A stretch of DNA of 64,000 nt, taken from contig CAVPLI010000001.1 in NCBI GenBank assembly GCA_963705965.1, positions 324,720-388,719 on the forward strand, read 5' to 3'. Positions 1 to 64,000 of the stretch are shown here, in pieces; within the stretch, counting starts at the first letter, position 1, and each line of letters starts with the position of its first letter. Position numbers and translations under genes: made by a program. Source of the DNA: an uncultured Actinomycetes bacterium. Lineage in GTDB: Bacteria > Actinomycetota > Thermoleophilia > Gaiellales > JALYLC01. The notes under the pieces are model-generated. The model was given only the letters and a program-made list of their open reading frames with translations, searched no databases and was not told where the DNA came from.

Positions 1-1575
1 CCTGGGACTACGAGCGCTTCGAGGAGCTGATGGAGGGCTCCATCCGGCGCGTGCCGGCGATGGAGGAGGCCGAGGTCAAGAAGTTCTTCAACGGCCCCGA
101 GGCGTTCACGCCCGACGGCGAGTTCATCCTCGGCCAGTCGGAGGTGCCGGGCTTCTGGGTCGCCGCGGGGTTCTGCGCGCACGGCCTCGCCGGCGCGGGC
201 GGGATCGGCAAGGTCATGGCGGAGTGGATCGTCGACGGCCAGCCGGAGTGGGACCTCTGGCACATGGACATCCGCCGCTTCGGCCGCCAGTACCGCTCCC
301 AGGCGTTCACGCTCGCCCGCACGATCGAGGTGTACTCGACGTACTACGACATCCGTACCCGGGCGAGGAGCGCCTGGCGGGGCGGCCGCTGCGCGTCTCG
401 CCGGCCTATCCGCGGCACATCGCGAACGGCGCGAGCTTCGGCGAGAAGTCCGGCTGGGAGCGCGTCAACTGGTTCGACCCGAACGCCGGCGACGGCGACG
501 AGTCGCTGCGGCCGCGCGGCTGGGCCGGCCGGAACTGGTCGCCGGCGATCGAGGCCGAGTGCCTCGCCGCGGGCGAGCGCGCGGTGCTGATCGACCAGTC
601 CTCGTTCGCGAAGATCGACGTCCACGGGCCGGGCGCGTGCGCGTTCCTCGAGCGCATGTGCGCCAACGCGGTCGACCGCCCGCTCGGATCGGTCATCTAC
701 ACGCAGCTGCTCAACGCCGCGCGGGGGCATCGAGGCCGACGTGACGCTCGTGCGGCTCGCGAGCGATCGCTACCTGTACGTCACGGGCACGGCGTTCGGC
801 TCGCACAACCTCGCCTGGCTGCGCCAGCACCTGCCCGATGGCGGTCGCACGTCGACGACATCACGCTCGTCGCGGACGTGCTACTGCCTCTGGGGCCCGC
901 GCGCGCGCGACATCCTGCAGCCGCTCACGAAGACCGATCTCTCGCACGAGGCGTTCCCCTACATGCGCGCGCGGGAGATCGCCGTCGGCAACGTGCCGCT
1001 GCTCGCCTCGCGCGTGACCTACGTGGGCGAGCTCGGCTGGGAGCTCTACGCGCCGGCGGAGTACGGCCTCGGGCTCTACGACGTGCTCTCACGACGGCCG
1101 GCGCGCAGCACGGCCTGCGCGGCGGCGGCTACCGCGCGATCGAGTCGATGCGGCTCGAGAAGGGCTATCGCGCCTGGGGCACCGACCTCACGCCCGAGAC
1201 GACGCCGGAGTCGGCGGGCGTGGGCTTCGCCGTGCGGCTCGACAAGGACACGCCGTTCATCGGCCAGGAGGCGCTGCGCGCCGAGCGCGCCGCCGGCGGG
1301 CCGTCCGAGCGGCTCGCGTGCCTCGTGCTCGACGATCCGCGCTCGGTCTGCCTGGGCTCCGAGCCGGTGCGCATCGACGGCGAGCTGTGCGGTCGCGTCA
1401 CGTCGGGCGGCTACGGCAGTCGCGTGCGGCGCAGCATCGCGCTCGCGTACGTGCCGGCCGCGCACGCCGTGGCCGGCACGCGCGCCGAGGTCGAGGTCTT
1501 CGGGGAGTGGGTACCGGCCGAGGTCGTGGAGGGCGCGCTCTACGATCCGGCTGGGAGAAGCGCATCCGGTCTTAG
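1..1575 (+). CDS. Dimethylglycine oxidase / sarcosine dehydrogenase-family protein (FAD oxidoreductase part plus GcvT-type aminomethyltransferase domain); 5' end outside window; frame-disrupted as sequenced
   Basis: Conserved blocks continue across 3 frames: FNGPEAFTPDGEFILGQSEVPGFWVAAGFCAHGLAGAGG, LIDQSSFAKIDVHGPGA, LYVTGTAFGSHNLAWL, VTYVGELGWELYAP, GYRAIESMRLEKGYRAWG, GRVTSGGYG. Frame changes lie near 355, 735, 845, 885, 1090 and 1555. Confidence 0.75.
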
Positions 1576-1583
1576 ACGTCCCC

Positions 1584-2405
1584 TTGCTCGTCGACTATCA
1601 CCTCCATCTCGCGCCCGACGGCGTCGCGCTTGGCGCGGCGGAGCTCTCGCCTGCCCACGTGGCGCTGTACGCCGAGAGCGCCCGCGAGCGCGGCATCGAC
1701 CACGTCTGCCTGACCGAGCACTGCCATCGCTTCCGCCAGGCGGCCGGTCTGCTTCGACCACCCGTTCTGGAACGAGAGCGCGCAGGCCGACCTGGACGCC
1801 TACGTCGACCGCGGTGCGCTCGAACGGCCCGCCCGTGGGCTGCGGGATCGAGCTCGACTGGATCGAGGGGCGCGAGGAGGAGATCGAGGCGCTCGTCTCC
1901 GCGCGCGACTTCGACCTCGTGCTCGGCTCCGTGCACTGGCTCGGCGGTCTCGCCGTCGACCACCCCGACTACGCGATCTGGGAGGAGATGGCGGCCGACG
2001 AGGTCTGGCGGCGCTACTTCGCGCAGGTGCGCGCGGCGGCGGCCTCCGGGCTCTTCGACGTGCTCGCGCACCTCGACCTCGCCAAGGTGTTCGGCCACTG
2101 CGCGAGCCAGTCCGTGATCGACAGCGAGCACGAGCAGACGGCCGATGCGATCGCGGCGGCCGGCATCGCGGTCGAGATCTCGACGGCGGGACTGCGCAAG
2201 GCCGCCGGCGAGCTGTATCCCGCACAGGACCTGCTGCGCGCGCTGCACCGGCGCGGCGTGCCGATCACGCTCGGCTCGGACGGCGCACGTGCCCGAGGAT
2301 CTGGGCCGCGACTACGCCCGCGCGCTCGAGGCCGCGCACGCCTGCGGCTACCGGACGGTGTCGATGTTCAGCGGCCGCGAGCGCCGCGAGGTACCGCTTG
2401 GCTGA
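1584..2405 (+). CDS. PHP-family histidinol-phosphatase-like hydrolase (frame-disrupted)
   Basis: Ordered PHP metal-ligand blocks [33 protein letters not shown] and ITLGSD-AH lie in 3 frames, with shifts near 1745-1800 and 2285. The TTG start at 1584 is a guess. Confidence 0.6.
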
Positions 2406-2879
2406 GCTGCGCGTCGGCACGGCATTCGACGCGCACCGGCTCGTCCCGGGCCTGCCGCTCGTACTCGGCGGCGTCGAGATCCCGCACTCCCACGGCCTCG
2501 AGGGGCACTCCGACGCCGACATCGTCTGCCACGCGCTCTGCGACGCGCTGCTCGGCGCCGCCTGCCTGGACGACATCGGCACGATGTTCCCGTCGAGCGA
2601 CGAGCGCTGGGCGCGGCGCGCGCAGCCTCGATCTGCTCGCCGAGGCCTGGCGCCGCATCGCGGGCATGGGCTGGAGCGTCGTCAACGTCGACGCGTTCGT
2701 CGTGCTGCAGGAGCCGAAGATCGCGCCCTACCGCGACGCCATGCGCGCGCACGTCGCCGACGCCCTGCTGCTGCGACGTGGGGCGCGTGTCGGTGCGCGG
2801 CACCGGCACGGACGGCCTCGGCTTCACGGGCCGCGGCGAGGGCGCGGCCTGCCAGGCCGTCGCGCTGCTGACCCGCTAG
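2398..2879 (+). CDS. ispF: 2-C-methyl-D-erythritol 2,4-cyclodiphosphate synthase (frame-disrupted)
   Basis: [30 protein letters not shown] and DIGTMFP are followed by [18 protein letters not shown] and [22 protein letters not shown] in other frames. Shifts lie near 2615 and 2775. The stop is TAG 2877-2879. Confidence 0.8.
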
Positions 2880-3892: not shown

Positions 3893-4668
3893 GAAGCGGG
3901 AATCTCCTCGGGTAGCGCGAGCAGGCCGTCGGCACGGCGCACGGCCAGGCCGTCGGCCAGCAGCGACTCGACGACGTCCCGATCGTAACCGCCGTCCGCG
4001 CGCGGCCCGTCCGCGAGCTCCCGCACGAGCGCGGCGCGGCGCTGGCGGCGCGAGCCCTCGAAGCGGCTCTGGCGGCGGAGCGGGGCGTAGGTGCGGCCGC
4101 GCGACGGGCACGAAGCCGCCAGCGGGCAGCGGTCGCAGCGCGGGATGCGCGCGAGGCAGACCTGGGCGCCGAGGTCGAAGAGCGCCTGGTTCCAGTCCCA
4201 CGCGCGCCCGTCCGGCGGCGGTACGTCGGTCGTGCCGAGCGATCGCTCGAGCACGCGGCGCACGTTCGTGTCGAGCGCCGTCACCTGGGCGCCGAACGCG
4301 AAGCACGCGATCGCGCGCGCGGTGTACGGGCCGATCCCCGGCAGACGCTCGAGGCCCTCGACGTCGCGCGGGAACCCGCCCAGCTCGACGACCCGGCGCG
4401 CGGCGTTCTGGAGGTTGAGCGCGCGGCGGTTGTAGCCGAGGCCCGACCAGGCGCGGAGCACGTCGGCGGCGGGCGCCGCCGCGAGCGCAGCCGGGGTCGG
4501 CCAGCGCTCGAGCCACGGCTCGTAGCGCTCCAGCACGCGCGCGACCTGCGTCTGCTGGAGCATGACCTCGCTGACGAGGATCGCGTAGGGGTCGCGCGTC
4601 CTGCGCCACGGCAGGTCGCGCGCGGCGCCGGCGAACCAGTCGAGCAACGCGTCCTGCATCCAGCGCAT
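3889..4668 (-). CDS. mutY: A/G-specific adenine glycosylase, short HhH-GPD form (no NUDIX-like C-terminal domain)
   Basis: Intact frame with LPWRRTRDPYAILVSEVMLQQTQV, GLGYNRRA and LPGIGPYTA (HhH). The 4Fe-4S motif is C-x6-C-x2-C-x5-C (CLARIPRCDRCPLAASC). The start is one of the Met codons at 4689, 4668 or 4659. Confidence 0.85.
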   Translation of the reverse strand: MRWMQDALLDWFAGAARDLPWRRTRDPYAILVSEVMLQQTQVARVLERYEPWLERWPTPAALAAAPAADVLRAWSGLGYNRRALNLQNAARRVVELGGFPRDVEGLERLPGIGPYTARAIACFAFGAQVTALDTNVRRVLERSLGTTDVPPPDGRAWDWNQALFDLGAQVCLARIPRCDRCPLAASCPSRGRTYAPLRRQSRFEGSRRQRRAALVRELADGPRADGGYDRDVVESLLADGLAVRRADGLLALPEEIPAS

Positions 4669-4687
4669 GCGCGACCATGGTAGATGC

Positions 4688-6018
4688 ATGCGCCCGGCCC
4701 GCCTCCGTTTCGCCCCGTCCCCGACCGGCCCGCTGCACCTCGGCTCGGCCGTGGTGGCGGTCGCCAACGCCCTGGGCGCTCGCAGTCTCGGAGGCGAGCT
4801 GCTGCTGCGCATCGACGACACGGATGCGGCGCGCACGGTCGCGGAGGCCGAGCAGGGGATCCTCGACGACCTCGCCTGGCTCGGCCTGGAGGTCACGGGC
4901 GCGCCCGTGCGCCAGAGCGAGCGGCACGAGCTCCACCTCGCCGCCGCGCGCGAGTTGCTCGCCACGGGGCATGCGTATCGCTGCTTCTGCCCACCGTCGC
5001 AGGAGCGCTACGACGGGCGCTGCCGGGCGCTCCCGCGCGGCGAGTCGGAGCGCCGCCACGAGGCGGGCGAGCCGAACGTCGTGCGCTTCCGCGTCCCGGG
5101 CGCCGAGGTCGTCGTGGAGGACGCGACGCGCGGGGCGGTGCGCTTCGCGGGTGACGAGATCTCGGACTTCGTGCTCGTGCGGGCCGACGGACGGCCGACG
5201 TTCGATCTCGCCACCTCCGTGGACGACCGCGATCTCGCGATCACGCACATCGTGCGCGGCGAGGATCACCTCGCGAACTCGGCGCGCCATCTGCTCCTGC
5301 TGCGCGCGCTGGGCGCGGTCGAGCCGGTCTTCGCGCACTGCCCGATCATCGTCGGCGCGGACGGCGAGCGGCTCTCGGCCCGGCGCGGCGCCGAGCCGCT
5401 CGCGGCGCTGCGCGCCCGCGGCGTGCCGCCGGAGGCCGTGGTCGCGTACGCCGCTCAGCTCGCCTGCCCGGCGCAGGGAGGCGCCGAGCGAGGTCGCATC
5501 GCTCGAGGAGCTCGCCGGGCGCTTCTCGCTCGCACGCCTCGGCCGGGGCACGGCGCACGCCGATCCCGCGCATCTCGCGTGGCTGGGCCGCGAGGTGCTC
5601 GCGGCCCTTCCGCTCGACGAGCTCGCGGGCCGCCTGGCGGCGTTCCTGCCGGCGGACACGCCGGAGCCCGTCCTGCACGCGCTCGCAGAGGCGGCGCGCG
5701 GCGCCTCGTCGCTCGGCGAGGTCGCCAACTCTGCTGCAGAATTGGCACAGCGGCCCTCCGGACCGCCTCCGCCCGGCCCGGCGCTGGAGCTCTTCCGCGA
5801 GCTGCGCGAGGCCGACGCGCGCGCGCAGCTGCCCTACGCGGCGGCCGTCAGAGCTCGTCGATCGGCTGCGCGAGCTCGGCGCGAGCCGCGGCCTCTCGGC
5901 CCGCGACGTGCTACACCCTCTGAGAATCGCCCTCACGGGCGCGCCGCACGGCCTGCCGCTTCCGGTCGTGGTCGCGGTGCTGCCGCGTGAGGAAGCCCTC
6001 GAACGCTGCAGGACATGA
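4688..6018 (+). CDS. gltX: Glutamate--tRNA ligase (frame-disrupted)
   Basis: [16 protein letters not shown] (HIGH-type), LLLRIDDTD and [16 protein letters not shown] are present, and the C-terminal anticodon-binding part sits in two further frames. Shifts lie near 5475 and 5850. The stop TGA 6016-6018 overlaps the cysS ATG. Confidence 0.85.
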
Positions 6019-7429
6019 CACCACTGAGGCTCTACGACCGCTTGAGAGACGAGATCGTCGACGTCGAGCCCAGCACGCCCGGCGTGCTGCGGGTCTACAG
6101 CTGCGGTCCCACGGTCTACGGGCGCATCCACGTCGGCAACGCGCGCCCGTACTGGACGGCGATGGTGCTCAAGCGCGCCTCCGAGCAGCTGCTGGACCTG
6201 CCGGCGCGCGTCGCGATCAACATCACGGACGTCAACGACAAGATCTACACCGCCGCGCGTGCAGCAGGGCGTTGCCGTCGCAGGAGCTCGCCGACCGGAT
6301 GGCCGCTGCCTATCGCGCGGACACCGACGGACTCGGGCTCGGGCGGCCCGACGCGGAGCCGCTCGCGAGCCAGACGATCCCCGAGATCGTCGCCCTGATC
6401 GAGCGGCTGATCGAGGAGGACGCGGCCTACGCGACCGCCGACGGAGACGTCTACTTCAGCGTCCAGGCCTATCCGCCGTACGGCGAGCTCTCGGGCCAGC
6501 GCCCCGACGAGCTGATCGCCGGCTCCCGCGTCGAGCCCGGCGAGGGCAAGCGCTCGCCGCTCGACTTCGCGCTCTGGAAGGCCAACAAGCCGGACGAGGA
6601 CACGGCCTGGGACTCGCCCTGGGGGCGAGGGCGGCCCGGCTGGCACATCGAGTGCTCGGCCATGGCGCGCGCGCAGCTCGGCGAGGACTTCGACGTGCAC
6701 GGCGGCGGCCTCGACCTGATCTTCCCGCACCACGAGAACGAGCGCGCCCAGTCGGAGGCCGCCGGCGAGCGCTTCGCGCGCACGTGGATGCACAACGGCA
6801 TGCTCCGCCTCACCGGCGAGAAGATGTCGAAGTCGCTCGGCAACATCGACGGGCTGGCCGAGGCGCTCGAGCGCGTGGGGCGCGAGACGTTGCTCGTGTT
6901 CTTCGCGCAGGCGCACTACCGCAGCCCGGTGGACTACTCCGACTCGACGCTCGAGCAGGCGTCGGCGACGGCGGCGGGTCTCCGCGAGGCGCTGCGCAAC
7001 GCGCGCCGCTACGCCGCCGCGGCCGGCACCGGGAGCGACACGGCCATCCGCACGCAGGCCGACGCGCGCCTTCGAGGCGCTTCGCCGCGTACATGGCCGA
7101 CGACCTCGACACGCCGCGTGCCCTGGCCGAGTTGCACGTCCTCGCCCGCGCGCTCAACACCGCCGTGGCCGGCGGCGAGGCCGATCCGGCCGCCGTGGGG
7201 GCCGCGGCAGACCTGCTCGTGAGCGCGCTCGACGTGCTCGGGCTCGCGTCGCTGGATCAGGAGGCGCGAGACGTCCGAGGAGGCGCTCGCCCTCGCCGTC
7301 GAGCGAGCCGCCGCGCGCGCCGCGGGCGACTACGCGCGCGCCGACGAGTTGCGCGACGAGATCGCGGCGCTCGGCTTCAGCGTGCGCGACACCCCGCAGG
7401 GGCCGCAGGTCGTGCCCCTCGATGGCTGA
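6015..7429 (+). CDS. cysS: Cysteine--tRNA ligase (frame-disrupted)
   Basis: [44 protein letters not shown] and KMSKSLGN are present, plus a C-terminal DALR-like tail. Frame changes lie near 6255, 7075 and 7275. The stop 7427-7429 overlaps the rlmB start. Confidence 0.9.
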
Positions 7430-8164
7430 CCGCGGCGACAAGCCGCCCCGCGACGACCTGGTCTACGGGCTGCAGCCCGTGCGCGAGGCGCTGCGCGGCC
7501 GCCGGCGCGTGCGGGAGGTCGTGTGCACGCGCGAGGCGGCCGAGGCGATGCCGTGGATCGAGAGCTCCGGGCGTGAGGATGTCGATCGCCGTCGCCGATC
7601 GCGTCACGGCGCTCGCCGAGCGGCCCGACCACCAGGGCGTCGTCGCGCTGTGCGATCCGTACCCGTATGCGGACGCGGCGGAGTTGCTCGCACGCCCGGA
7701 CGCGCTCGTCGTCGCGCTCGACGGCGTCACCGACCCCCGCAACCTCGGCGCGATCGCGCGCTCCTGCGAGTGCCTCGGGCGCTCACGGCCTCGTCATTCC
7801 CCGGCACGGCTCCGCCGGCGTCACGGCCGTCGTCGCGAAGGCCTCCGCGGGCGCGATCGAGCACCTGCCGATCGCCCAGGTCACGAACCTCGCCGAGTTG
7901 CTGCGCCGCAACAAGCGCGCCGACCTCTGGAGCTACGCCGCCGCCGAGGACGCGGACTCGACGCCCGATGCGCTCGACCTCACGGGCGGCGTGGTGCTCG
8001 TGCTCGGCGCCGAGGGGACCGGCATCCGGCCGCTCGTGCGCCAGCGCTGCGACGCGGCGGTCCGCATCCCGATGCACGGGCAGATCGGCTCGCTCAACGT
8101 CGCCGTCGCGGCGTCGTTGCTGCTCTACGAAGCCGATCGCCAGCGCCGCGCCGCGCGCCCGTAA
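7422..8164 (+). CDS. rlmB: SpoU/TrmH-family 23S rRNA 2'-O-methyltransferase (RlmB-like), frame-disrupted
   Basis: [47 protein letters not shown] and [22 protein letters not shown] are present. Frame changes lie near 7570 and 7785. Confidence 0.8.
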
Positions 8165-8378: not shown

Positions 8379-9041
8379 ATGGCAGCGGCAGCGCAACGAA
8401 GCGAGTCGTACAAGGCTCAACGTGAAGTTGAGGATCTCCATCTTGTTCTGCGGGCGCGTTCGGGCAACCGCGCGAGCGAGGCAGAGATCATCCGGCGCTA
8501 CGCGGGCTTCGTCCGCCTCCGCTCGTCGAGCTATTTCATCGCCGGCGGCGATCCGGACGACCTCGTGCAGGAGGGCCTCGTCGGCCTCTACAAGGCGATC
8601 CGCGATTACCGCGTCGACAAGGACACGACGTTCCGCTCGTTCGCCGAGTTGTGCATCACGCGCCAGATCATCACGGCCATCAAGACGGCCACCCGGCACA
8701 AGCACGCTCCGCTCAACGGCGCGCTCTCGTTCAGCCATACGCCGGCGGGCTACGACGACGGCTCCGACTTCACGCTGGGCGACGCGCTGCCCGGATCGCC
8801 GATCGACGATCCTGCGCGCCGCGTCGTCGCGACCGAGGAGCTCGCCGCGCTCGTGGGCTGCCTCGGCTCGAGCCTCTCGCCGCTCGAGGGGCGCGTGCTC
8901 ACGCTCTATCTCGAGGGCCGCTCCTACGAGGAGATCGGCGAGATCGTCGAGTGCGATCCGAAGGCCGTCGACAACGCCCTGCAGCGCGTCAAGCGCAAGG
9001 TCGGCCAGCACCTGGCCACGCGCGCCGTGCTCGACGCCTGA
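8379..9041 (+). CDS. sigH: RNA polymerase sigma factor of the Bacillus SigH (sigma-30) type
   Basis: Intact 220-aa frame. FRSFAELCITRQIITAIKTATRHKHAPLN, LYLEGRSYEEIG and KAVDNALQRVKRK closely match my memory of B. subtilis SigH. The position after gltX-cysS-rlmB is the same as in Bacillus. Confidence 0.8.
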   Translation: MAAAAQRSESYKAQREVEDLHLVLRARSGNRASEAEIIRRYAGFVRLRSSSYFIAGGDPDDLVQEGLVGLYKAIRDYRVDKDTTFRSFAELCITRQIITAIKTATRHKHAPLNGALSFSHTPAGYDDGSDFTLGDALPGSPIDDPARRVVATEELAALVGCLGSSLSPLEGRVLTLYLEGRSYEEIGEIVECDPKAVDNALQRVKRKVGQHLATRAVLDA

Positions 9042-20059: not shown

Positions 20060-20115
20060 GGGGTGTACCTCCGGGTTTGCGCGGCGTGCCGCGAAGTAAA
20101 GGCACGGTAGGGGAG

Positions 20116-20135
20116 CCTTGACTCGCGAGTCAAGG
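20116..20135. promoter_or_regulatory. Perfect 20-bp palindrome, candidate operator upstream of the aminotransferase/acyl-CoA dehydrogenase operon
   Basis: CCTTGACTCGCGAGTCAAGG lies 57 bp upstream of the ATG at 20059 and 50 bp upstream of tRNA-Thr. Each half contains TTGACT. Confidence 0.4.
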
Positions 20136-20185
20136 CACATCGGATGCGCAGAGATCCGGCGCACGGTGGACAATGCGGGGAACAG

Positions 20186-20258
20186 GCCGGGTTAGCTCAG
20201 CTGGTAGAGCGCTTCTCTTGTAAGGAAGATGTCGTCGGTTCGAGTCCGACACCCGGCT
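20186..20258 (+). tRNA. tRNA-Thr (anticodon TGT)
   Basis: Hand-folded cloverleaf. The acceptor is GCCGGGT/ACCCGGC, the D arm GCTC..GAGC, the anticodon stem CTTCT/GGAAG with loop CTTGTAA, and the T arm GTCGG-TTCGAGT-CCGAC. The discriminator is T and no CCA is encoded. Confidence 0.9.
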
Positions 20259-20280
20259 CTCGAGGCTCTAACCTCGTGCG

Positions 20281-24299: not shown

Positions 24300-24320
24300 T
24301 TCGAGCGTAGCCGCATGCGC

Positions 24321-26662: not shown

Positions 26663-26679
26663 CGTTCTCTCCCGGTCGG

Positions 26680-27729: not shown

Positions 27730-27909
27730 ACCCGTCCTTCCGGCCCGATGTGGTTAGAGCGCCAAGCCCACGACCCCACGGCTGCCGGGAGAACCCTGGC
27801 AGCCGATAATCCTTTGGGTCGCGGGGAGCGCGTACATGGGGCCAAGCATAGCGAGGTCGCGCGCACCTGCGCTGCGGTACGCGCGCACGCTCGCTATGAT
27901 CGGGCGGCG

Positions 27910-27963: not shown

Positions 27964-28056
27964 GGGAGCAATCGTGGACATAGTCATCCGTTGCCGTCCG
28001 TGGCCCAGCGCCACGGGCGTCGCCCTGTCCACTCTGCGATTTCCGGAGGCCGCTAG

Positions 28057-51900: not shown

Positions 51901-52808
51901 TTAGCCTCCAGATGGCCAGGGCGGCCGAGCAGCGCACGCGAACGCCTCGGGCCGCTCGACCATCGGCAGGTGGCCGCAGCCGGGCAGGAAGCGGATCGAG
52001 GCGCCGAGGGCACGTGCGCCTGCAGGACGGCGGCGTCGGCCGGGCGGCACGATGCGATCGCGGTCGCCCCAGATCGCCGCGATCGGCGCCGCCAGGCGCG
52101 CGCGCCTCCTCGGCCAGGCCGATCGCGAACGACGCGGCGATCGCGCCGGGCAGCTCGCGCGCGTCGCGGCCGCCGTCGACGAGGCGCGCGCAGTCTCGTC
52201 GATCGACGGTCGACGGGTCGTCGACCAGCGGCGGAGCGCGGCGCGCCGCAGCGGCCCGACGAGCGAGGCCAGCCAGTGCTCCCAGTGGGAACGGCGCTCG
52301 CCGCAGCGCCCGGTAGAGCGGCACGCGCTCAGCGCGCGCTGCTGCCAGACCGGCGCGGGCGCGAGCCCGCTCGGGCCCGACCAGGATCACGCGCGCGACG
52401 ACGTCCGGGTGGCGGAGGCGAAGCGCGACGGCCAGCGGGCCGCCGAGCGAATGGCCGCAGACGACCGCCGGCGACCCGTCTCGAGCGCGCGCATCGCGGC
52501 GGCCAGGCGTCGCTCGCCGAGTCGAGGTCGAATCCCGCCGGCGGGCTCGTCCGAGCGGCCGAAGCCGGGCAGGTCGAGCGCGATGCAGGCGCGCCCGGTC
52601 GCTCAGCAGCGCCATCGTGCGGCCCCAGTACTCCCAGGTGCCGCCGAGCCCGTGCAGCAGCAGGAGTCGGCGGGCCCGAGCCCGCCTCGGCGCCGGTCAC
52701 GAGCCGTCCGGACAGCTCGACGCGCAGCGGGCGGAAGCCGGCGGCGAGCCGGGCGCAGCCAACCGGGCGGCTCGCGCGGCTGCGCGCGATGGTGAGGAAG
52801 CGGCCCAT
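51901..52808 (-). CDS. Alpha/beta-fold hydrolase, heavily frame-disrupted
   Basis: LLLLHGLGGTWEYW-type, ALDLPGFGRS-type and VVCGHSLGGPLA (nucleophile elbow GxSxG) are present. There are at least 4 frame changes. The ATG 52808 overlaps the upstream stop (ATGA). Confidence 0.55.
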
Positions 52809-53479
52809 CAGGCGCGTGAGCCGTCTGCCAGGTACTCCGGCTCGTAGGCGCGGGCGCGGGCGACCAGCTCGGCGGGATCGGCGCCGCGCGCCCGCACGAT
52901 CTCGGGCACGGCGCCCGTCCAGCGCCTCGACCGAGTCGGCGTCGACCTCGATGTGGAACTGGATCGCCCAGACGGCGTCGCCGATGCGGTACGCCTGCTG
53001 CGGTGCGCGCTCGGAGCGCGCGAGCGGCACGGCTCCCTCGGGGAGCTCGCAGCCGTAGTCGTGCCACTGGAAGACCTCGCACGCGGGCGCGAGCGGCCCG
53101 AGCAGCGACGTCGTGCGGCACCGGCCTCGGTCAGCTCGACGTGGAACCAGCCCAGCTCGGGCTGCGCCAGCCGCGGCGCGCCGACGCCGAGCGCCTGGCC
53201 GAGCAGCTGCGCGCCGAGGCAGATCCCGAGCACCGCGGTGTCGCGCTCGACCGCCTCGGCGAGCGTTGCGCGCACGTCCGCGAGCCAGGCGAGCCGCGCG
53301 TCGTCGTCGGGGTTCATGGTGCCGCCGTAGGCGACCACCGCGTCCACGTCGTCGAGGATCGGCCGGGGCTCGCCGGCGTGTGCGTGCCAGTGCTCGATCG
53401 CCCAGCCGCCGGCACGTGCGGGGGCCAGCAGGCTGCCGCCGTCGGAGGTGGGCTCGTGATGGATGCAGAGCAGGCGCAC
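52808..53479 (-). CDS. Class-I glutamine amidotransferase-like protein (frame-disrupted)
   Basis: [33 protein letters not shown] (nucleophile Cys elbow) and AIQFHIE (His-Glu) are present. Frame changes lie near 53120 and 52925. The start is uncertain (53479 or 53530). Confidence 0.65.
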
Positions 53480-53536
53480 GGGCCGATCGTAGCCGCGCGT
53501 GCGTCCCGCTCGAGATGCGCCGACTACCATCCACGC

Positions 53537-54374
53537 GTGCACGCGGAGCGTCCGATCGGCATGTTCGACTCCGGCGTGGGAGGCCTCACGGTGCTCCACG
53601 AGTGCCTCGTCACGATGCCGCACGAGGACTTCCTCTACGCCGGCGACACCGCGCGCTTCCCGTACGGCGGGCGCTCGGCCGGACGAGCTGCGCGGCTACG
53701 CCCAGGAGATCGGCGGCTGGCTCGTCCGCGCGGGCGTGAAGCTGATCGTGGTCGCCTGCAACTCGGCCACGGCGACCGCGCTCGGCGATCTGCAGCGCAC
53801 GCTCGAGGTGCCGGTGATCGGCGTGCTCACGCCCGAGGCGCGGGCCGCGGTGCAGCTCACGCGCAACCGCCGCGTCGGGCTGCTGGCCACCGAGGCGACG
53901 ATCGCGAGCGGCCGCTATCGCGACGTCGTGCACGGCCTCGACGCCGGCATCGAGCTCGTCGAGGTGGCCTGTCCGGGCCTGGCCGACGCGATCCAGCGCG
54001 GCGAGACCTACGACGAGACGATGGTCGCGCGCGTGCGCGCGCACTGCGCGCCGCTGCGCGCGGCCGAGGTCGACACCGTGATCCTGGGCTGCACGCACTA
54101 CCCGCTGATCCGCGGGATGCTGCAGCGCGAGCTCGGGCGCGACGTGGCGCTCGTCTCGGCGGCCGAGGAGCTGGCCGAGGAGGTCGCCGCGACGCTCGCG
54201 CGCAAGCGGCTCGCGCGCGACCACGGCCGCCGCGGCTCGTACCGCTTCGCCTGCACGGGCGACGCCGAGGCGTTCGCGAGCGTCGGCCGCCGCTTCCTGC
54301 AGCTGCCCATCTCGAGCGTGCGCACGCTCGACGCCGGCCGAACTAGCCGGACTCAGTCCTCGCGGCCGTCTTAG
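53537..54374 (+). CDS. murI: Glutamate racemase (one frame change)
   Basis: [14 protein letters not shown] and [11 protein letters not shown] are followed by an extra G at 53681-53682. [11 protein letters not shown] and [10 protein letters not shown] then follow. Confidence 0.85.
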
Positions 54375-54409
54375 GGCACTGATGCGCAGGCACCGCCTAG
54401 ACTCCAGCG

Positions 54410-55136
54410 ATGCGACACGACGGCCGCGCAGAGGACGAGCTGCGCCCTCTCGACTTGCTGCCCGGGCTTCGTCGAGACGGCGGACGGCTCCGTGCTGTTC
54501 TCGATCGGCCGCACGCGCGTGATCTGCACGGCCAGCGTCGACGCGGACACGCCGCGCTGGCTGCGCGGCACCGGGCGCGGCTGGGTCAGCGCCGAGTACG
54601 GGATGCTGCCCGGCCTCGACCGGCCAGCGGAAGCAGCGCGACTCCTCGCGCGGCCGCCCGGACGGCCGCTCGATCGAGATCCAGCGCCTGATCGGCCGCT
54701 CGCTGCGCGCGATCGTCGACCTCGAGGCGCTCGGCGAGCGCACGGTGTGGGTCGACTGCGACGTCCTGCAGGCCGACGGCGGCACGCGCTGCGCGTCGAT
54801 CTGCGGCGGCTACGTCGCGCTGCACCGCGCGCTCAGCGGCCTCGTCGACGCCGGCAAGCTGCGCCGAGCTGCCGCTCACCGCGGGCGTGGCCGCCGTCTC
54901 CTGCGGGATCGTCGAGGGCGAGGCGGTGCTCGACCTCGACTACCACGAGGACTCGAGCGCCGAGGTCGACCTCAACGTCGTCATGACGAGCGGCGGGCCG
55001 CCTCGTCGAGGTGCAGGGCACGGCGGAGGGCCAGCCGTTCGACCGCGCCCAGCTCGACCGCCTGCTCGAGCTCGGCGCCGCGGGCATGGAGCGCATCGAG
55101 GCTGCGCAGCTGCGGGCGGTCGCCGCCCCCCGATGA
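54410..55136 (+). CDS. rph: Ribonuclease PH, heavily frame-disrupted
   Basis: [79 protein letters not shown] and VDLNVVMT lie across 3 frames with at least 5 changes. The stop overlaps the rdgB ATG (ATGA). Confidence 0.8.
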
Positions 55137-55717
55137 GCCGGCTGCGCGCGGTGCTCGCCACGGGGAACGCCGGCAAGGCAGCCGAGCTGTCGCGCCTGCT
55201 CGGCCGTCGACGTGCGAGGCGCGGCCGATCGAGGTCGACGAGAACGCCGGCACGTACGCGGGCAACGCGCTGCTCAAGGCGCGCGCCGCGCTCGCGGCGG
55301 CCGACGGCCGCATCGGGCTCGGCGACGACTCCGGGCTCGAGGTCGCGGCGCTCGGCGGCGAGCCGGGTCTGCGCTCGGCGCGCTGGGCCGGTCCGACCGA
55401 CGCCGACCGCAACGCGGCGCTGCTCGCGCGCCTCGACGGCGCCGCCGGACCGCTCGGCGGCGTTCGTGTGCGCGCTCGCCGCGGTCGCTGCCCGACGGCC
55501 GCGAGATCGTGGTCGAGGGGCGCGTCGAGGGCGCGATCGCCGACGCGCCGCGCGGCGAGCGCGCGGGTTCGGCTACGACCCGCTCTTCGTGCCCGAGGGC
55601 GAGTCGCGCACGCGTCGCGCGAGCTCGACGCCGCACGAGAAGGACGTCGCTCTCGCACCGCGGGCGCGCCTCGCGCGCGCTCGCGGCGGCGCTCGGCGGA
55701 GGCCGGCGTCGCTGTGA
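55133..55717 (+). CDS. rdgB: Non-canonical purine NTP pyrophosphatase (RdgB/HAM1 family), heavily frame-disrupted
   Basis: [52 protein letters not shown] and SHRG are present with at least 4 frame changes. The end is assigned to TGA 55715-55717, which overlaps a GTG. Confidence 0.65.
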
Positions 55718-57213
55718 ACGTCGCCGCCGCTGCTCCTGCCGTTCGTCGTCGCGCTGCCGCCCGGCGCCTCGCGCCGCCGCCGGGCGCGCTGCCGCGCGCG
55801 CGCGCAGGTCACGGCGCTCGATCGCGAGCTCGGCCTCGTGCCGTGCGCCTGCCCGAAGCGCGGCGTCGCGCCGGCGCTGCGCCGCCTGCGCGCGGCGCCG
55901 GGCGTGCGCTACGTCGAGCGCGACGCGCCGGTCAGCTCGCCGCCGGCCGAGGGCTGCGGCGGCGTCGGCTCACGACGCCCGAGAAGCCGTTTCCGGGCTG
56001 GCGCAGCGCGATCCACCTGAGCAGCGCTCGGCCGCCGGGATGCTCGATCGGCATCGCCGACTCGGCGTCGACGACGATCGCCTCGCGCCGCGTCCAGGCA
56101 CCGCTGCTGAAGCTCGTCCGCCGGCGGCGCCAAGAGGCCGCAGGATCCGACTCGGGCACGGCACGGCCGTGGCCAGCCTCCTGCGTCGCCAACCGCCCGG
56201 ACGTCGGACGTCGTCGGCATCGTCCCGGACGCGACGCTGCTCGTCGGCGCGCATCATCAGCGCCGACCTCGTGCGCGCAGCCGGTGCTCGCGCAGCGGAC
56301 TGATCAAGGCGCTTCGGCTGGCTGCGCCGCCAGGGCGCGCAGGTCGTCAACGTCTCGGCGACGGCGCGTGCCCTCGCGCGCGCTGCGTCGACTCGCTGCG
56401 GGCGCTGCGAGCTCTCGGGCGCGCTGGTCGTCGCCGCCGTCGGCAACGGCGGCAGCGTCGCGCGCCGCGACCGCTTCCCGGCGTCGCAGCCCGGCGTGCT
56501 CGGCGTCGGCGCGCTCGCGCCGCGCTCCTCCACCAAGGTCGAGACGGACTCGACGCGCGGCCCGCAGGTCGATCTCGTCGCGCCGGCGGAGGGCATCAAG
56601 GTCGTCGCCTCGACGCCGATCTCGGCGGCCGCCGAGACGGCGATCGACACCCGGCGGGCACCTCGTTCGCCGCGCCGCTCGTGACCGGCGCCGCCGCGAT
56701 GGTGTGGGCGACGCACCGCGACTGGATCCGCCGCCGAGGTCGCGAATGCGCTCGTGCGCAGCGCCACGCCGCTCGCGGCGCGGCGCGCCGAACCGCGACT
56801 CGGGCTGCGGGCCGGCTCGACGTGCGGCGCGCGCTGCAGCATCGCGCCGCGTGCCCGATCCGCACGAGCCGAACGACTGGGTCGCCGCCGCGCTCGCGCC
56901 AGCGCCCGCTGCACCCCGGGCGCCGTCGTCGTCGCGAGCCTCGGCTATGCCGGCGACCCGGTCGACGCCTACACGGTGCGACGTGCCCGCCGGCGACGCA
57001 GGCCCGCGCGGTGCTGCGCACGGGCGGGGCCGGGATGACGCTGCGCCGCGCTCTCGGTGAAGCCGACCGACGCGCTGCGTCGCGGGCGTGCGCACGCGCA
57101 GCGCACGCGGCCGACCGCGCAGATCACGCTGCCGCCGGGCCGCTCGCTCCTGGTCGTCGACGCCGCGAGCCAGGGCGCCGGGCGCCTACACGCTCGCGCT
57201 CTCGGGCACCTGA
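55714..57213 (+). CDS. Subtilisin-like S8 serine peptidase with I9-type propeptide and C-terminal pre-peptidase-like domain; at least 8 frame changes (possible true pseudogene)
   Basis: [14 protein letters not shown] (signal), [29 protein letters not shown]-type (Asp), [10 protein letters not shown] (His), [26 protein letters not shown] (Ser) and PHEPNDW are present, ending ...YTLALSGT*. The blocks are scattered over all 3 frames. Confidence 0.55.
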
Positions 57214-58076
57214 GCGCCGCCGCGGTCGGCCGCCGCCGCGGCGCGCCCGCGCGCCGACCACCAGGTGATCGCGCCGCCGATCAGCACGATGTTGCCCATC
57301 AGGTAGAGCCAGACGAGCAGCACCGCCGCGCCGCCGAAGACCTTCAGCGCCGGCAGCGCCCTCGACCGTGCGCACGTAGAGCGGCAGCGCCTCGAACGTG
57401 ATCTGCAGCAGCGCGGTCGCGACCAGCGCGCCCGGCAGCACCTGGCGCGTCGTGAGCTCGGTGTTGGGCAGCGTGCGGTAGACGAGCAGCAGGAAGAGGA
57501 ACGTCGTCACGCGTGCTGATCGCGAGCGCCGCCGCCGATCCGCCAGACGGCGAGGTTGCGAGAGCCCGGGCGCGATCTCCGAGAGCGCCGTCTGGCTCGT
57601 GACCACGATCGTGAGGCCGAGCAGCAGGCCGATCAGCGCCGGCGCCCAGCAGGCCCGAGCATGACCAGCTTCTGGTGCAGGAAGCCGCGGTTGGGCAGCC
57701 CGTAGATCACGTTGAGCCCCGACTCGAGCGCCGAGAGGAAGCCGAGCGACGACCACAGCAGCGCGACGACGCCGATCAGGCCGATCTCGCGCGGCGTTCG
57801 ACTCGAGGCTGCGCACGAAGCCGCGCGAGGTCGCGCGCGCTCGTGCCCGGCAGGACGTGGCTGAGGTCGTGCAGCAGCGCCGAGGTCTCCTCGGGCCGCC
57901 CGATCGCGCTCACCAGCGAGGCCGCCAGGAACACGAACGGGAACAGCGAGAGCAGCGCGTAGTAGGCGAGCATCGCGGCCAGGTGCGGGCCGCGGGCGCC
58001 GAAGTAGCTGCGCAGGATCGGCCGAGACCATGTGCACGGGCCGCATCGCGCCGCTCGCGATCTCGGCGCGCCCCAT
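57186..58076 (-). CDS. YihY/BrkB-family membrane protein, heavily frame-disrupted
   Basis: AAMLAYYALLSLFPFVFLAASL, IGVVALLWSSLGFLSALESGLNVIYG, TFLFLLLVYRTLPN and LYLMGNIVLIGGAITWW are present with at least 5 frame changes. The 3' end overlaps the convergent S8 gene by 27 nt. Confidence 0.65.
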
Positions 58077-58239
58077 CAGGGCATTGAAGCGGGCCGAGCG
58101 GCGTCGGTCCGTCGCGCGCGACCTGGGCGGGTGCGCGCGGCGCCCTCGTCCCGGCGTGCGGACGTGCCGGATTTTCCGCTTGGGCGTACCGTTCGTGTGG
58201 TACGGTCCGCCCGTTCCATGCGGTCCGAGAAGGGTGCTT

Positions 58240-58665
58240 ATGGACGGGCATGAAGCGCTCGCCGACCTCAAGCAGATCTCCGTGCAGATCGAAGCCGCAG
58301 TGATCGCCGATCACAGCGGTGCGGTGCAGGCCTGCTCGCCGGACGACGCGGCCACGGGCGAGCTGCTCGCGCGGCTCGCGCTCGAGATCTGGGAGGCGGC
58401 CGACGCGCTCGCGCCGCGACCTCGGCCGCGACGCGCTCACGCAGGTCGAGCTCTCGACGGCGCAGGGCAGCGTGTTCGTCGTGCGCGATCGCCCGCCACG
58501 TGCTGCTCGCGACGACGGCGCCCGATCCCACGGTCGGGCCTCGTCTTCTACGACCTCAAGTCGGCGCTGCACGCGCTCGACGGCCAGCCCGGCCGCGCCG
58601 AGCCGACCGTCGTCTGGCAGGCCGATGCCGGCGTGGGCCCGGAGGGCGGCGATGGCGCGGCGTAA
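58240..58665 (+). CDS. Roadblock/LC7 (MglB-like) domain protein, three +1 frame changes that restore the original frame
   Basis: LADLKQISVQIEAAVIADHSGAV, DALTQVELSTAQGSVFVVRD, LLATTAPDPTVG and LVFYDLKSAL are present. The middle segment (about 58430-58545) reads in the two other frames. Confidence 0.55.
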   Translation: MDGHEALADLKQISVQIEAAVIADHSGAVQACSPDDAATGELLARLALEIWEAADALAPRPRPRRAHAGRALDGAGQRVRRARSPATCCSRRRRPIPRSGLVFYDLKSALHALDGQPGRAEPTVVWQADAGVGPEGGDGAA

Positions 58666-58871
58666 GCGCAAGGTTGCTCGGGGCCGTCGACGCTCGCGGT
58701 CGGATCGGCGGCGGGCTCCGCGCTGATCTTCAAGCGCAAGCGCGAGCGCAACGCGAGCCGCGCCGACCTCTACTTCGAGGACGGCTCGATGCTCTCGCTG
58801 TCGCAGGGCGCGCCCGAGGCGGACCGCTGCTGCCGCTCGCCGCCGAGGCGCTCGCGGCCACCGGCCGGTGA
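58652..58871 (+). CDS. Small basic hypothetical protein bridging the roadblock-like gene and pyrE (frame-disrupted)
   Basis: The ATG overlaps the upstream stop and the TGA overlaps the pyrE GTG. The reconstruction is MARRKRKVARG / STLAVGSAAGSALIFKRKRERNASRADLYFEDGSMLSLSQGAPEADR / LLPLAAEALAATGR* over 3 frames. Confidence 0.3.
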
Positions 58872-59407
58872 CGCGCGCCGAGCTCGCCCGTCGCGTCGCG
58901 GAGCGCGCGCTGCTGCACGGCGACTTCGTGCTGCGCTCGGGCAAGCGCTCGTCGGTCTACCTCGACAAGTACCGCTTCGAGACCGATCCGGCGCTGCTCG
59001 GGCCGATCGGCGAGGCGCTCGGCGAGCTGATCGCGCGCAGCGCTGCCCGCGCCCGACCGGCTCGCCGGGCCCGGAGCTCGGCGCGGTGCCGCTCGCGGCG
59101 GCCGCGGCGCTGGCCACGCGGCATCCCGTTCCTGATCGTGCGCAAGGCGACCAAGGACTACGGCACCGAGGGTCGCATCGAGGGCGTCTACGAGGCCGGC
59201 GAGCGCGTGCTCGTGGTCGAGGACGTCGTCACCACGGGCGGCGCCCTGATCGCGGCCATCGAGGCGCTGCGCGCGGCGGATCTGGTCGTCGAGACCGCAC
59301 TCTGCGTGCTCGATCGCGAAGAAGGCGGAAACGAGGCCCTCGCGGCACTCGGCGTCCGCCTCGAGCCGCTCTTCCGCCGTGCCGATCTGGGCATGCCGGT
59401 CGCGTAG
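58868..59407 (+). CDS. pyrE: Orotate phosphoribosyltransferase (three +1 frame changes within about 70 nt restore the frame)
   Basis: GDFVLRSGKRSSVYLD, LAGPELGAVPLAAAAALAT (other frames, 59038-59110), IPFLIVRKATKDYG and VLVVEDVVTTGG (PRPP motif) are present. Confidence 0.85.
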   Translation: MTRAELARRVAERALLHGDFVLRSGKRSSVYLDKYRFETDPALLGPIGEALGELIARSAARARPARRARSSARCRSRRPRRWPRGIPFLIVRKATKDYGTEGRIEGVYEAGERVLVVEDVVTTGGALIAAIEALRAADLVVETALCVLDREEGGNEALAALGVRLEPLFRRADLGMPVA

Positions 59408-59447: not shown

Positions 59448-59536
59448 ACGAGTGGGTTTGCGGCTTGTCGCGTGTGCTCCGGCCGCTCGGGTGTAAGCGT
59501 GCGCACCGGCAGGCCCGAAACGGTGCCGATGGGCAC

Positions 59537-59560
59537 GAAACCGCATGGCCATGCGGTTTC
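59537..59560. promoter_or_regulatory. Perfect 24-bp palindrome upstream of hup
   Basis: GAAACCGCATGGCCATGCGGTTTC lies 57 nt upstream of the hup ATG, within a 209-nt intergenic region of locally lower GC. Confidence 0.4.
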
Positions 59561-59616
59561 CCGTCCGATGCCTCTGCTAGCGTGCTCGCGGTTCCCAACC
59601 GAGGAGGAATTCCACG

Positions 59617-59895
59617 ATGACCAAGGGTGAGTTCATCGACGAGGTGGCGACGCGCACCGGGCTGTCCAAGAAGGACGCCGGGGCCGCGGTCGACGCCGTG
59701 CTCTCGACGATCAGCGACACGCTGAAGAAGGGTGGAGACGTCGCCTTCACCGGCTTCGGCAAGTTCCACGTCACGAAGCGCTCGGCGCGCACCGGCGTCA
59801 ACCCGCGGAACCCGGGTCAGAAGGTCCAGATCCCCGCGGCGACCGTGCCGAAGTTCTCCGCCGGCTCGACGCTCAAGGCCGCCGTCCGCGGCTAG
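59617..59895 (+). CDS. hup: HU-family nucleoid-associated DNA-binding protein
   Basis: Intact 92 aa with GAGGAGG upstream. Conserved blocks are MTKGEFIDEVA, GFGKFHVTKRSARTGVNPRNPGQKVQIPA and VPKFSAGSTLK. Confidence 0.9.
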   Translation: MTKGEFIDEVATRTGLSKKDAGAAVDAVLSTISDTLKKGGDVAFTGFGKFHVTKRSARTGVNPRNPGQKVQIPAATVPKFSAGSTLKAAVRG

Positions 59896-62842: not shown

Positions 62843-63384
62843 GCAAGCGCGCGCCCCGACCGCGACGGAAGAAACGGCCGAGAGCACCGGGCGCCCGCCG
62901 CTCGCCGTGGAACTACCTGGCCCCGGCCGCGCTGCTCCTCGCGGTGACGGCGATCACGCTGATCCTCGCGAGCGCGGGCGTGCTCGGGCATACGTCCGAC
63001 GGGGACTCGCCGGTCGTCACCGCCCGCGGCGGGCCGGTCGAGACGCTGCCCGTGCCGTCGACCGCGCCGCCGCCCGCGCCTCCGCCGCCCCAGCCGCAGC
63101 CCGTGCCGCCGCCCGCGCCGCCCGAGCCGCCGCCGCCCGCGACCACCGCCGAGACGACGGCCTCGACCACGACGACGACCACGACGGATACGTCGACCAC
63201 CGAGACGACGACCGGAGACGACCAGCAGCGTCGGCCAGCACGTGAAGTGGACGGTCAAGCCCGGCGACACGCTGGCCTCGATCGCCACGCAGTTCGGGAC
63301 GACGCGTGCGAGGCGCTTCTGCGCCTGAATCCGAGCATCGATCCGGACACGCTGCAGATCGGACAGGAGATAATCGTGCGCTGA
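62839..63384 (+). CDS. Membrane-anchored Pro/Thr-rich protein with C-terminal LysM domain (two compensating frame changes)
   Basis: The GTG overlaps the pyrF stop. A TM helix (LAPAALLLAVTAITLILASA) is followed by the PPPAPPPPQPQPVPPPAPPEPPPP and T-rich tracts. The LysM block is WTVKPGDTLASIATQFGTT / EALLRLNPSIDPDTLQIGQEIIV, with the frame off between about 63230 and 63305. Confidence 0.7.
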   Translation: MSKRAPRPRRKKRPRAPGARRSPWNYLAPAALLLAVTAITLILASAGVLGHTSDGDSPVVTARGGPVETLPVPSTAPPPAPPPPQPQPVPPPAPPEPPPPATTAETTASTTTTTTTDTSTTETTTGDDQQRRPAREVDGQARRHAGLDRHAVRDDACEALLRLNPSIDPDTLQIGQEIIVR

Positions 63385-63415
63385 TGCGGCGACCCGGTGC
63401 CGGAGCGTGCTGCGG

Positions 63416-64000
63416 CTAGAACTCCTCACCGGGCACCGGCGGCGGTGGTCGTAGCGCGGTAAGCGTGATCAGGCAGACGTCGAGCCCGAAGCCGAGCACG
63501 CCCGTGCCGACCAGGAGCGCGGTCAGGGTGAGCGGCGTGGCGCCGCTGTCGAACGAGGGCCCGAGCGCAGCGGCGAGCACGAACGAGATGGTCAGCCACA
63601 CGGCGGTGACGCCGAGCGAGGCACCCGGGCGGCGCAGGACGACGTGCAGGCTGGAGCGGAACGCCCCCAGCAGGCCGAGGTCGTCGATCACGATCGCGTA
63701 GTCGGCATAGAGCGTGAAGAGGAGCACCCCCAGCAGCACCGGCGGCCCGATCTCGGGCACGTCGGCCTTCTCGAGGATGCCGATGCCGAACGCGAGCGGT
63801 GTCACGACGCAGACGTCGAGCAGCACGAGGCGGACGACCGAGGGCCATGCCGGCCGCGGAAAGCCGCCCGTCGTGGCGAGTGCGCGGATGTAGGAGGCGC
63901 GGATCCAGGCCATCGGCCATGGCCGCACGAACACGTACAGCGCGACCGCCGCCGCGCACGCCCAGTCGCCCCCGACGGCGCGGTCGAGCGCGTCGGCGAG
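63416..64000 (-). CDS. Hypothetical integral membrane protein, 5' end beyond the window
   Basis: The open frame continues past Met 63934 to the window edge. Multiple hydrophobic segments are present (VVRLVLLDVCVVTPLAFGIGIL, PVLLGVLLFTLYADYAIV, GVTAVWLTISFVLAAALG). Confidence 0.5.
   Translation of the reverse strand, partial: LADALDRAVGGDWACAAAVALYVFVRPWPMAWIRASYIRALATTGGFPRPAWPSVVRLVLLDVCVVTPLAFGIGILEKADVPEIGPPVLLGVLLFTLYADYAIVIDDLGLLGAFRSSLHVVLRRPGASLGVTAVWLTISFVLAAALGPSFDSGATPLTLTALLVGTGVLGFGLDVCLITLTALRPPPPVPGEEF

Follow-up and report, generated by a model that had tools for sequence, protein, structure and literature searches.

Reading-frame breaks in a high-GC actinobacterial metagenome contig are very probably consensus errors, many apparently strain polymorphisms written as two adjacent bases

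The many reading-frame breaks in the 64-kb stretch of DNA analysed here (the window) are, with a probability that we put at about 95%, errors in the consensus of a long-read metagenome assembly (nanopore-type, Flye-style) and not mutations of the organism. The underlying indels are private to one assembly, affect coding and non-coding DNA alike, and their removal leaves intact, highly conserved genes. In the dominant error mode, as comparison with related contigs shows, both alleles of a SNP stand side by side in the consensus, the SNP being usually of the G/C type and at the third codon position. We infer both the sequencing platform and the mixture of strains.

Results

Frame breaks and their distribution

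Because the G+C content across the window is 69–78%, plain lists of open reading frames are uninformative; the frame signals in a GC3 plot are clear. The frame map was obtained with a 7-state Viterbi model trained on the codon usage of ilvB, leuB and leuA. It contains 93 direct frame switches on the same strand, 73 corresponding to one extra base and 20 to one missing base. When frame-stitched products were scanned with Pfam, 49 junctions fell strictly within one continuous domain alignment, the affected genes including gltX, cysS, rlmB, ispF, ilvC, murI, rph and rdgB as well as glpD, glpK, glpF, xseA, two citrate synthases and pyrE. This confirms the original observation of many breaks in conserved genes, and its figure of about 45 of about 65 affected genes agrees with our own count of about 42–45 of about 66.

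Related contigs cover 88 of the junctions. Of these, 75 lie within 30 bp of an indel that a relative lacks and whose length is not a multiple of three; the indels behind these matched switches are 1–2 nt long and have no counterpart in the related contigs. The remaining 13 covered switches resemble ordinary gene boundaries, several with start/stop overlaps (ATGA, GTGA). By this comparison, private 1–2 nt indels account for about 75–80 of the 93 switches. Identity to the window is 98.0% for L001, 95% for L003, 95–97% for L005–L011 and 91–98.7% for L172–L180. The features referred to below are the following.

1–64000, no strand: whole window, a high-GC actinobacterial chromosome segment with about 66 genes and 93 same-strand frame switches.
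4658–5910, plus strand: gltX, private insertions near 5477–5486 and 5848 (indels relative to L172–L174 and L176); the Pfam tRNA-synt_1c alignment spans the first junction, near 5477.
6048–7426, plus strand: cysS, five private +1 insertions (6258, 6274, 7067, 7079, 7266), all absent from short-read L176.
7427–8158, plus strand: rlmB-like SpoU methylase gene, private +1 insertions at 7572 and 7777, neither present in L176, L178 or L180.
15271, minus strand: break in a dCache/GGDEF sensor gene, an extra G turning CC into CGC on the plus strand; absent from L001, L173 and L174.
17526–21342, no strand: break-free block (acyl-CoA dehydrogenase, aminotransferase, tRNA-Thr, GT4 glycosyltransferase); its sole junction, 18692, is a gene boundary also present in L001.
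23864–23865, minus strand: ilvC break, an extra base that L001 lacks; the Pfam KARI_N alignment spans the junction.
24324–29715, no strand: break-free block ilvN-ilvB-leuB-leuA according to the frame map; nearly identical to L001 from 24.3 to 27.9 kb.
42505–42506, plus strand: glpK CG doublet, Ala GCC/GCG written as GCCG; L012 reads GAC GCG GAC GAG, and Pfam FGGY_N spans the junction.
44716–45767, plus strand: citrate-synthase family gene, five private insertions relative to L012 (44766, 44863, 44990, 45170, 45425); a single Citrate_synt alignment (profile positions 8–357 of 357) bridges all five junctions.
52000–59150, no strand: densest error stretch (hydrolase, GATase, murI, rph, rdgB, S8 peptidase, BrkB, Roadblock-like gene, 72-aa ORF, pyrE).
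53680–53683, plus strand: murI extra base, Ala GCC/GCG written as GCCG; L002, L003 and L004 are each one base shorter, L002 and L004 carrying different alleles.
58255–58662, plus strand: Roadblock/LC7-like gene, private insertions 58407, 58491 and 58535, absent from short-read L005.
58866–59404, plus strand: pyrE, private insertions 59045, 59070 and 59118, absent from L005 and L007.
59527–59616, no strand: non-coding indels upstream of an HU gene, an A lost at 59527 and a CG doublet at 59615/59616, the relatives carrying only one of the two bases, C or G, at that place; six or seven independent short-read contigs contradict the window at these sites.
61467, plus strand: extra G in an RNase T/GIY-YIG gene, found in the window and in long-read L003; the Thr codon is ACC in short-read L006 and ACG in L004.

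The window-private indels number about 180, a total that is approximate in 52–58 kb, where the references are error-prone long-read contigs only, two of them just 84–86% identical. Their distribution is as uneven as originally described, with none per 2 kb in 18–22 and 24–28 kb compared with 22–40 per 2 kb in 52–58 kb (chi-square 360 across 2-kb bins, 27 df). An exact-protein look-up with leuA (28060–29721) found no match; since this left no close relative, the reading of 27.9–32.4 kb is drawn entirely from the frame map and Pfam. A scan of metagenome contigs with a CysS fragment gave at most 61% identity among the matches listed and was not used further. Apart from the tRNA-Thr, Rfam and tandem-repeat scans of the window returned only GC-rich repeats that were short and low-scoring; none of these hits is relevant to the breaks.

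Comparison with related contigs

Independent contigs of the same lineage, 91–99% identical, lack the breaks of the window. Relative to the short-read contig L176 all 11 indels are insertions in the window, and most of them recur in comparisons with L178–L180 where these overlap. Short-read relatives contain 5 junctions in 27.9 kb (0.18 per kb), those mapped being ordinary gene boundaries, and long-read relatives of the contig_N type contain 202 in 147.7 kb (1.37 per kb; 1–2.7 frame breaks per kb in individual assemblies), at positions that differ from those of the window. In L003, 5 of 40 junctions lie within 25 bp of one in the window; they are mostly gene boundaries with one of another type, and only the insertion at 61467 is a shared break. 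The deletions seen relative to short-read contigs are four, all losses of a single A. The locus is present in two contigs from one sample (L172 and L173; ERZ25039530), with identities of 91% and 94% respectively; related strains therefore co-occur.

Gene restoration and selection

Deleting the private bases restored CysS with zero stop codons and 462 of 469 residues identical to that of L176, RlmB with 246 of 246 identical to the short-read protein, the Roadblock-like protein with 139 of 140 and PyrE with 174 of 178, likewise against short-read proteins. For RlmB, complete identity was reached by removing 2 bases despite a nucleotide divergence of about 2.4% from L176. Corrected genes were scored by the best single-frame alignment; using the longest open frame was rejected because at 73% G+C the wrong frames are open as well.

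Before and after the breaks alike, mismatches to relatives show a several-fold excess at the third codon position of the frame inferred locally. Every 2-kb bin, those of 52–58 kb included, has a position-(1+2)/3 mismatch ratio of 0.06–0.38; purifying selection is thus visible on either side of the breaks, with no relaxation downstream. The indels ignore coding status, 42 of the roughly 180 falling in non-coding DNA (for example 59527 and 59615). With indels that are private, proteins restored to 98–100% and selection intact, the preference first expressed for consensus indel error over decay or recoding is upheld.

Error spectrum

Insertions outnumber deletions 144 to 36 among the window-private indels, in agreement with the earlier impression that most junctions need one base skipped. 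The inserted base could be resolved in 56 cases and was C in 27, G in 21, A in 7 and T in 1, that is, G or C in 48 of 56. Homopolymer miscalls, which had been proposed as a source of the errors, do not explain most of them: counting the inserted base, the run length was 1 in 40 cases, 2 in 14 and 3 in 2, and 40 of 56 insertions (71%) thus lie outside any run. At random positions of the window the run length is 1 for 64%, and the insertions are accordingly no more run-associated than expected. The four junctions originally resolved base by base were all recovered within 3–5 nt; the one at 15271, however, is a G splitting CC and not a longer CCC run. The change CC to CGC or GG to GCG represents 22 of the 56 insertions, while CC and GG together make up only 17.5% of dinucleotides.

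An insertion was considered testable for a both-alleles signature when at least two informative relatives were available, the signature being that relatives disagree on which of the adjacent window bases is the extra one. It was found in 46 of 88 testable insertions (52%) compared with 15% of simulated insertions (p = 5e-16). The two alleles of such doublets are C and G in 23 of 36 cases, and the doublet starts at codon position 3 in 22 of 36; worked examples are those at 42505, 53680, 59615 and 61467. About half of the testable insertions do not have the signature, given the relatives at hand, and a second error mode, for example plain low-depth noise, must therefore contribute.

We also considered CpG creation as a driver. 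The inserted base creates a CpG in 36 of 56 cases where 44% would be expected (p = 0.0015), a modest enrichment that is better explained by the SNP-doublet effect. The decamer GCCGGACGAG, which had been noted at both the glpK and the murI break, was rejected as a determinant: it has 3 copies in the window compared with 1.5 expected, a count of 3 is attained in 18 of 100 shuffles, and the remaining copy (6589) lies in frame. The observation itself holds in that both breaks are doublets, with GCCG standing for the two Ala codon alleles, GCC and GCG; the recurrence is not significant. Insertion density did not correlate with divergence from the nearest relative over the whole window (rho 0.04), where the comparison is confounded because different relatives were used in different zones. 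Within 49–64 kb a correlation was found (rho 0.55, p = 0.03).

Discussion

The main error mode can be read from the doublets: where co-occurring strains have different bases at a site, mostly G versus C in the third codon position, the consensus holds both alleles side by side, and the added base shifts the frame. As for its origin, reads from at least two strains 2–10% apart may have been collapsed into one contig, and the assembler or polisher may then have resolved mixed columns as a base plus an insertion. In this case error density would track local strain divergence and/or read depth, leaving clean and dirty stretches. Among genome records the nearest is a nanopore MAG from Microflora Danica; that project used Flye and one round of Medaka, without short reads (PMC12313526). 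Flye is known to collapse strains into a consensus contig when they are about 98.65% identical (PMC8302730), and nanopore R10.4 consensus is near-finished only from about 40x coverage (PMC9262707).

The most serious competitor is the version first proposed, in which generic low-coverage or homopolymer base-calling noise produced the breaks and strain mixtures played no part. The strong clustering of the errors is what uneven read depth would produce, consensus indels increase at low coverage (PMC9262707), and mismatches at positions 1+2 reach 3.6% in the dirtiest bin (56–58 kb) compared with 0.25–0.45% in 60–64 kb. The single-A losses, which make up all four deletions relative to short-read contigs, and the roughly half of the insertions that do not have the both-alleles signature also fit such noise. 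However, random noise predicts neither a 4 to 1 excess of insertions nor 52% of them on SNP sites with both alleles against 15% in simulation, and the insertions are no closer to homopolymer runs than random positions are. We consider noise as the sole source unlikely, though still a possibility to be taken seriously.

Among known systems, the consensus indels of nanopore-only assemblies and MAGs (PMC9262707, PMC12313526) are close to what is seen here. As in those assemblies, single-base indels fragment conserved genes at a density that varies by assembly or region, short-read assemblies of that organism do not contain them, and their removal restores the genes. The classical error, on the other hand, is a miscalled homopolymer length, usually a deletion, while in the window 71% of the resolved insertions are outside runs, insertions dominate 4 to 1 and about half of them double a SNP. 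The strain-collapsed contigs of the Strainberry paper (PMC8302730) are similar in that close strains co-occur and the consensus mixes alleles of several strains; the paper deals with collapse and with contigs rich in SNVs, and the conversion of an SNV into a tandem doublet and hence a frameshift was not found in it.

Reductive decay with mass pseudogenisation, as in Mycobacterium leprae or recent endosymbionts, likewise leaves many genes frameshifted. True decay spares essential genes, leaves lesions that close relatives have in common and lets selection relax in the dead genes; the window has none of these three hallmarks. Recent, real indels in a decaying or indel-mutator lineage gaining frameshifts in most genes are thus very improbable, even though the bases are present in the deposited sequence and the insertion at 61467 is common to L003, which comes from another sample. 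The breaks affect genes that are normally essential, gltX, cysS and murI among them, and relatives 1–5% away do not share these breaks, the exceptions being 61467 and natural overlaps between genes. Selection remains strong downstream of the breaks (ratio 0.06–0.38), and RlmB becomes identical over its entire length once two bases are removed. Moreover, other long-read assemblies have the same break density at other sites, whereas short-read contigs show only gene boundaries.

Slippage and programmed frameshifting, known from endosymbiont poly-A tracts, prfB and dnaX, depend on a slippery motif or a long homopolymer that orthologues conserve as well. As in those cases, the conserved protein sequence and the codon bias continue in the new frame after each one-base shift; but real indels that some 80 events of transcriptional slippage or programmed ribosomal frameshifting would offset, one per site, have practically no chance of being the explanation, since the sites have neither slippery heptamers nor long homopolymers (inserted bases are mostly in runs of 1), are private to one assembly and not conserved in near-identical strains, non-coding DNA carries indels equally, and the extra base is the alternative allele of a SNP. 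We give hardly more credence to the broader proposition of a living soil actinobacterium in which the indels are real and some 80 frameshifts per 64 kb, gltX, cysS and murI included, are offset by recoding.

If, as we conclude, the breaks are consensus errors, their consequences concern the use of the data. Gene calls, pseudogene counts, completeness estimates and protein clusters derived from this contig are wrong for about two thirds of the genes, and sibling long-read contigs, with 1–2.7 frame breaks per kb, pose the same problem. Homopolymer-aware fixes would miss SNP doublets because the error signature is not linked to homopolymers; phasing-aware or short-read polishing should remove them. 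Long-read polishers that work on collapsed strains may systematically turn G/C SNPs into tandem doublets, an artefact that would then be under-recognised and for which public MAG catalogues could be screened. For the organism itself the breaks have no biological significance: because they are errors of the consensus, the genes of this bacterium are not broken but intact.

Reading frames across the window

G+C content lies at 69-78% across the entire window and leaves all frames open, so that an ORF list is of no use for gene finding. Genes were instead followed with a Viterbi frame map comprising six coding frames and a non-coding state, trained on the codon usage of ilvB, leuB and leuA and retrained once. 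Very frequent frame changes were apparent both on this map and on a GC3 plot. The map contains 93 direct same-strand switches (junctions) in the 64-kb window; 73 shift the frame as one extra base would, and 20 as one missing base would. When the segments were translated each in its own frame and then joined, sensible proteins resulted, and a Pfam scan of 30 such stitched products placed 49 junctions strictly within one continuous domain alignment. Examples are:

Citrate_synt, aligned over profile positions 8-357 of 357, spanning five junctions
Ham1p_like, spanning four junctions
Aminotran_3, aligned over profile positions 11-403 of 403, spanning three junctions
KARI_N, tRNA-synt_1c, FGGY_N, MIP, Asp_Glu_race and Alk_phosphatase, each spanning one junction

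By our own count, some 42-45 of the roughly 66 genes in the window are affected. The original prediction of pervasive frame breaks is thus confirmed, and its counts, its gene list and its bias towards extra bases were correct. The sole RNA gene found in the window is a tRNA-Thr (20186-20259). Within the S8 peptidase gene (55700-57210), which is intact and encodes 490 aa in the long-read contig L002, the map assigns short pieces to the other strand or to the non-coding state; these assignments reflect very dense indels and are no evidence of antisense genes.

Comparison with related contigs

Relatives were fetched by exact-protein look-up with three intact window proteins (ilvB, HU and a sigma factor), which yielded independent contigs of the same lineage; one further relative came from a genome scan with GlpK. 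Jointly they cover 58.3 kb of the window.

Related contigs, with identity to the window
L001, via ilvB: 98.0% over 13 kb
L002-L004, via HU: three long-read contigs (contig_N naming), 84-95%
L005-L011, via HU: seven short-read contigs, 95-97%
L172-L175, via the sigma factor: four long-read contigs, 91-98%
L176-L180, via the sigma factor: five short-read contigs, 91-98.7%
L012 (MFD05942.bin.1.384, a Microflora Danica nanopore MAG), via GlpK: 86%, syntenic over 32.4-52.6 kb

At least one relative covers 88 of the 93 junctions, and at 75 of these 88 a non-3n indel missing from at least one relative lies within 30 bp. The remaining 13 resemble ordinary gene boundaries, several with start/stop overlaps such as GATGGCTGA, GCGATGACG and GGTGACG. 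Against the short-read contig L176 (97.6% identity) the window shows 11 indels, every one a single-base insertion in the window, and most were seen again against L178-L180 where these overlap. Comparison with L005-L011 revealed private insertions (present in the window, absent from relatives) in four genes: the Roadblock-like gene, the 72-aa ORF, pyrE and the RNase T gene. Two further indels, at 59527 and 59615, are non-coding, and there the window differs from six or seven independent contigs that agree with one another. Even with the long-read contig L003 (95% identity) junctions coincide at only 5 of 40 places, mostly gene boundaries.

Removal of the private indels restores genes matching their short-read counterparts:

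CysS, 5 bases removed: 462/469 identity, no stop codons
RlmB, 2 bases removed: 246/246 identity
Roadblock-like protein, 3 bases removed: 139/140 identity
PyrE, 3 bases removed: 174/178 identity
72-aa ORF, 2 bases removed and 1 added: 68/72 identity

Against every relative, mismatches fall mainly on the third position of codons read in the locally inferred frame (positions 1, 2 and 3: 0.64%, 0.62% and 3.64% for L001; 0.68%, 0.41% and 9.3% for L006), and the position-(1+2)/3 mismatch ratio is 0.06-0.38 in every 2-kb bin, the densest stretch included. Genes that had died long ago, or even moderately recently, could not show this pattern. Decay of the genes is therefore contradicted by unrelaxed selection, by breaks that the relatives do not share and by indels that also strike non-coding DNA, which holds 42 of the ~180 private ones. 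The other alternative, real breaks compensated by recoding, is contradicted by the last two observations as well as by the absence of slippery sites.

The ilvN-ilvB-leuB block (24300-27900) is nearly identical to L001, with mismatches of 0.9-2.7% at position 3 and 0-0.1% at positions 1+2, while position 3 differs by 3-8% in the flanking 14-22 kb. A recent sweep or recombination between strains could have made the block a low-diversity island, or it may simply be more strongly constrained. For indels, too, no stretch of the window is cleaner.

Nature of the inserted bases

Compared with all relatives, the window carries ~180 private indels of non-3n length, 144 of them insertions and 36 deletions; the count is approximate in 52-58 kb, where other long-read contigs are the sole references. 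Consensus indel error, favoured in the original prediction, is supported as the preferred reading. Homopolymer miscalls, which it named as one possible source, are not supported, since 40 of the 56 base-resolved junction insertions lie outside any homopolymer. The inserted base was C in 27, G in 21, A in 7 and T in 1, and in 22 of the 56 a CC became CGC or a GG became GCG.

At 59615 and 61467 relatives have one or other of two adjacent window bases. More generally, of the 88 insertions for which two or more relatives are informative, 46 have relatives that differ as to which of the bases is the extra one, as against 15% of simulated nearby insertions (p = 5e-16); at these 46 the window carries both SNP alleles in tandem. 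The allele pair is C/G in 23 of 36 and the doublet starts at codon position 3 in 22 of 36. Both junctions of the original prediction that share GCCGGACGAG, in glpK and murI, are an Ala codon GCC/GCG written as GCCG. The decamer itself was rejected as a cause of breaks: a third copy (6589-6598) is in frame within cysS (K-P-D-E) and unbroken.

Reads of co-occurring strains were thus probably collapsed, with mixed columns then resolved as a base plus an insertion. Such a collapse would fit with the reported merging of ~98.65% identical strains into consensus contigs by Flye (PMC8302730), and with the two separate contigs that one sample (ENA ERZ25039530) provides for the locus, L172 (91% identical to the window) and L173 (94%). 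Close relatives hence co-occur in one soil sample; the frame-break density of these two contigs differs strongly (2.7 vs 1.0 per kb).

The extra G at 61467 (ACG-C CTG) is common to the window and L003, which stems from a different sample; the homologous codon is ACC in the short-read L006 and ACG in L004. Either an error recurs systematically at this G/C SNP, or the window and L003 share a real variant. The four single-base deletions seen relative to short-read contigs, at 58142, 58240, 58828 and 59527, are each the loss of an A (GC[A]GC, TT[A]ATG, GC[A]TG and GC[A]CG), which suggests a second, composition-biased error mode.

Dependence on the assembly

With the same frame map, short-read contigs have 5 junctions in 27.9 kb, at positions matching called-gene boundaries, and long-read contigs have 202 in 147.7 kb (range 0.19-2.7 per kb). 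L001 has its own ilvC break at 3745 (window 24144), where a C is lost (TCCCAG to TCCAG), resulting in a truncated 253-aa KARI gene call; the window is intact there (YGSQGH). Private indels are strongly clustered (chi-square 360, 27 df): 18-22 and 24-28 kb hold none, 52-58 kb holds 22-40 per 2 kb. In 49-64 kb insertions become denser as third-position divergence from L003 increases (rho 0.55, p = 0.03), with local read depth as an alternative driver; over the whole window the test, which is confounded, gave no correlation.

Contig names, like the nearest genome record, suggest assembly with Flye from nanopore reads alone and a single round of Medaka polishing (PMC12313526). The authors of that study themselves tie low coding density to low coverage, and an R10.4 consensus reportedly needs ~40x coverage (PMC9262707).

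The exact HU protein (59617-59895) is present in 22 blocks of the public collection and the exact sigma factor (8379-9041) in 36; ENA, JGI soil metagenomes, Logan and NCBI GCA_0475204xx records are among the sources. The lineage occurs widely in soils, and the frame breaks are not a feature of its biology.
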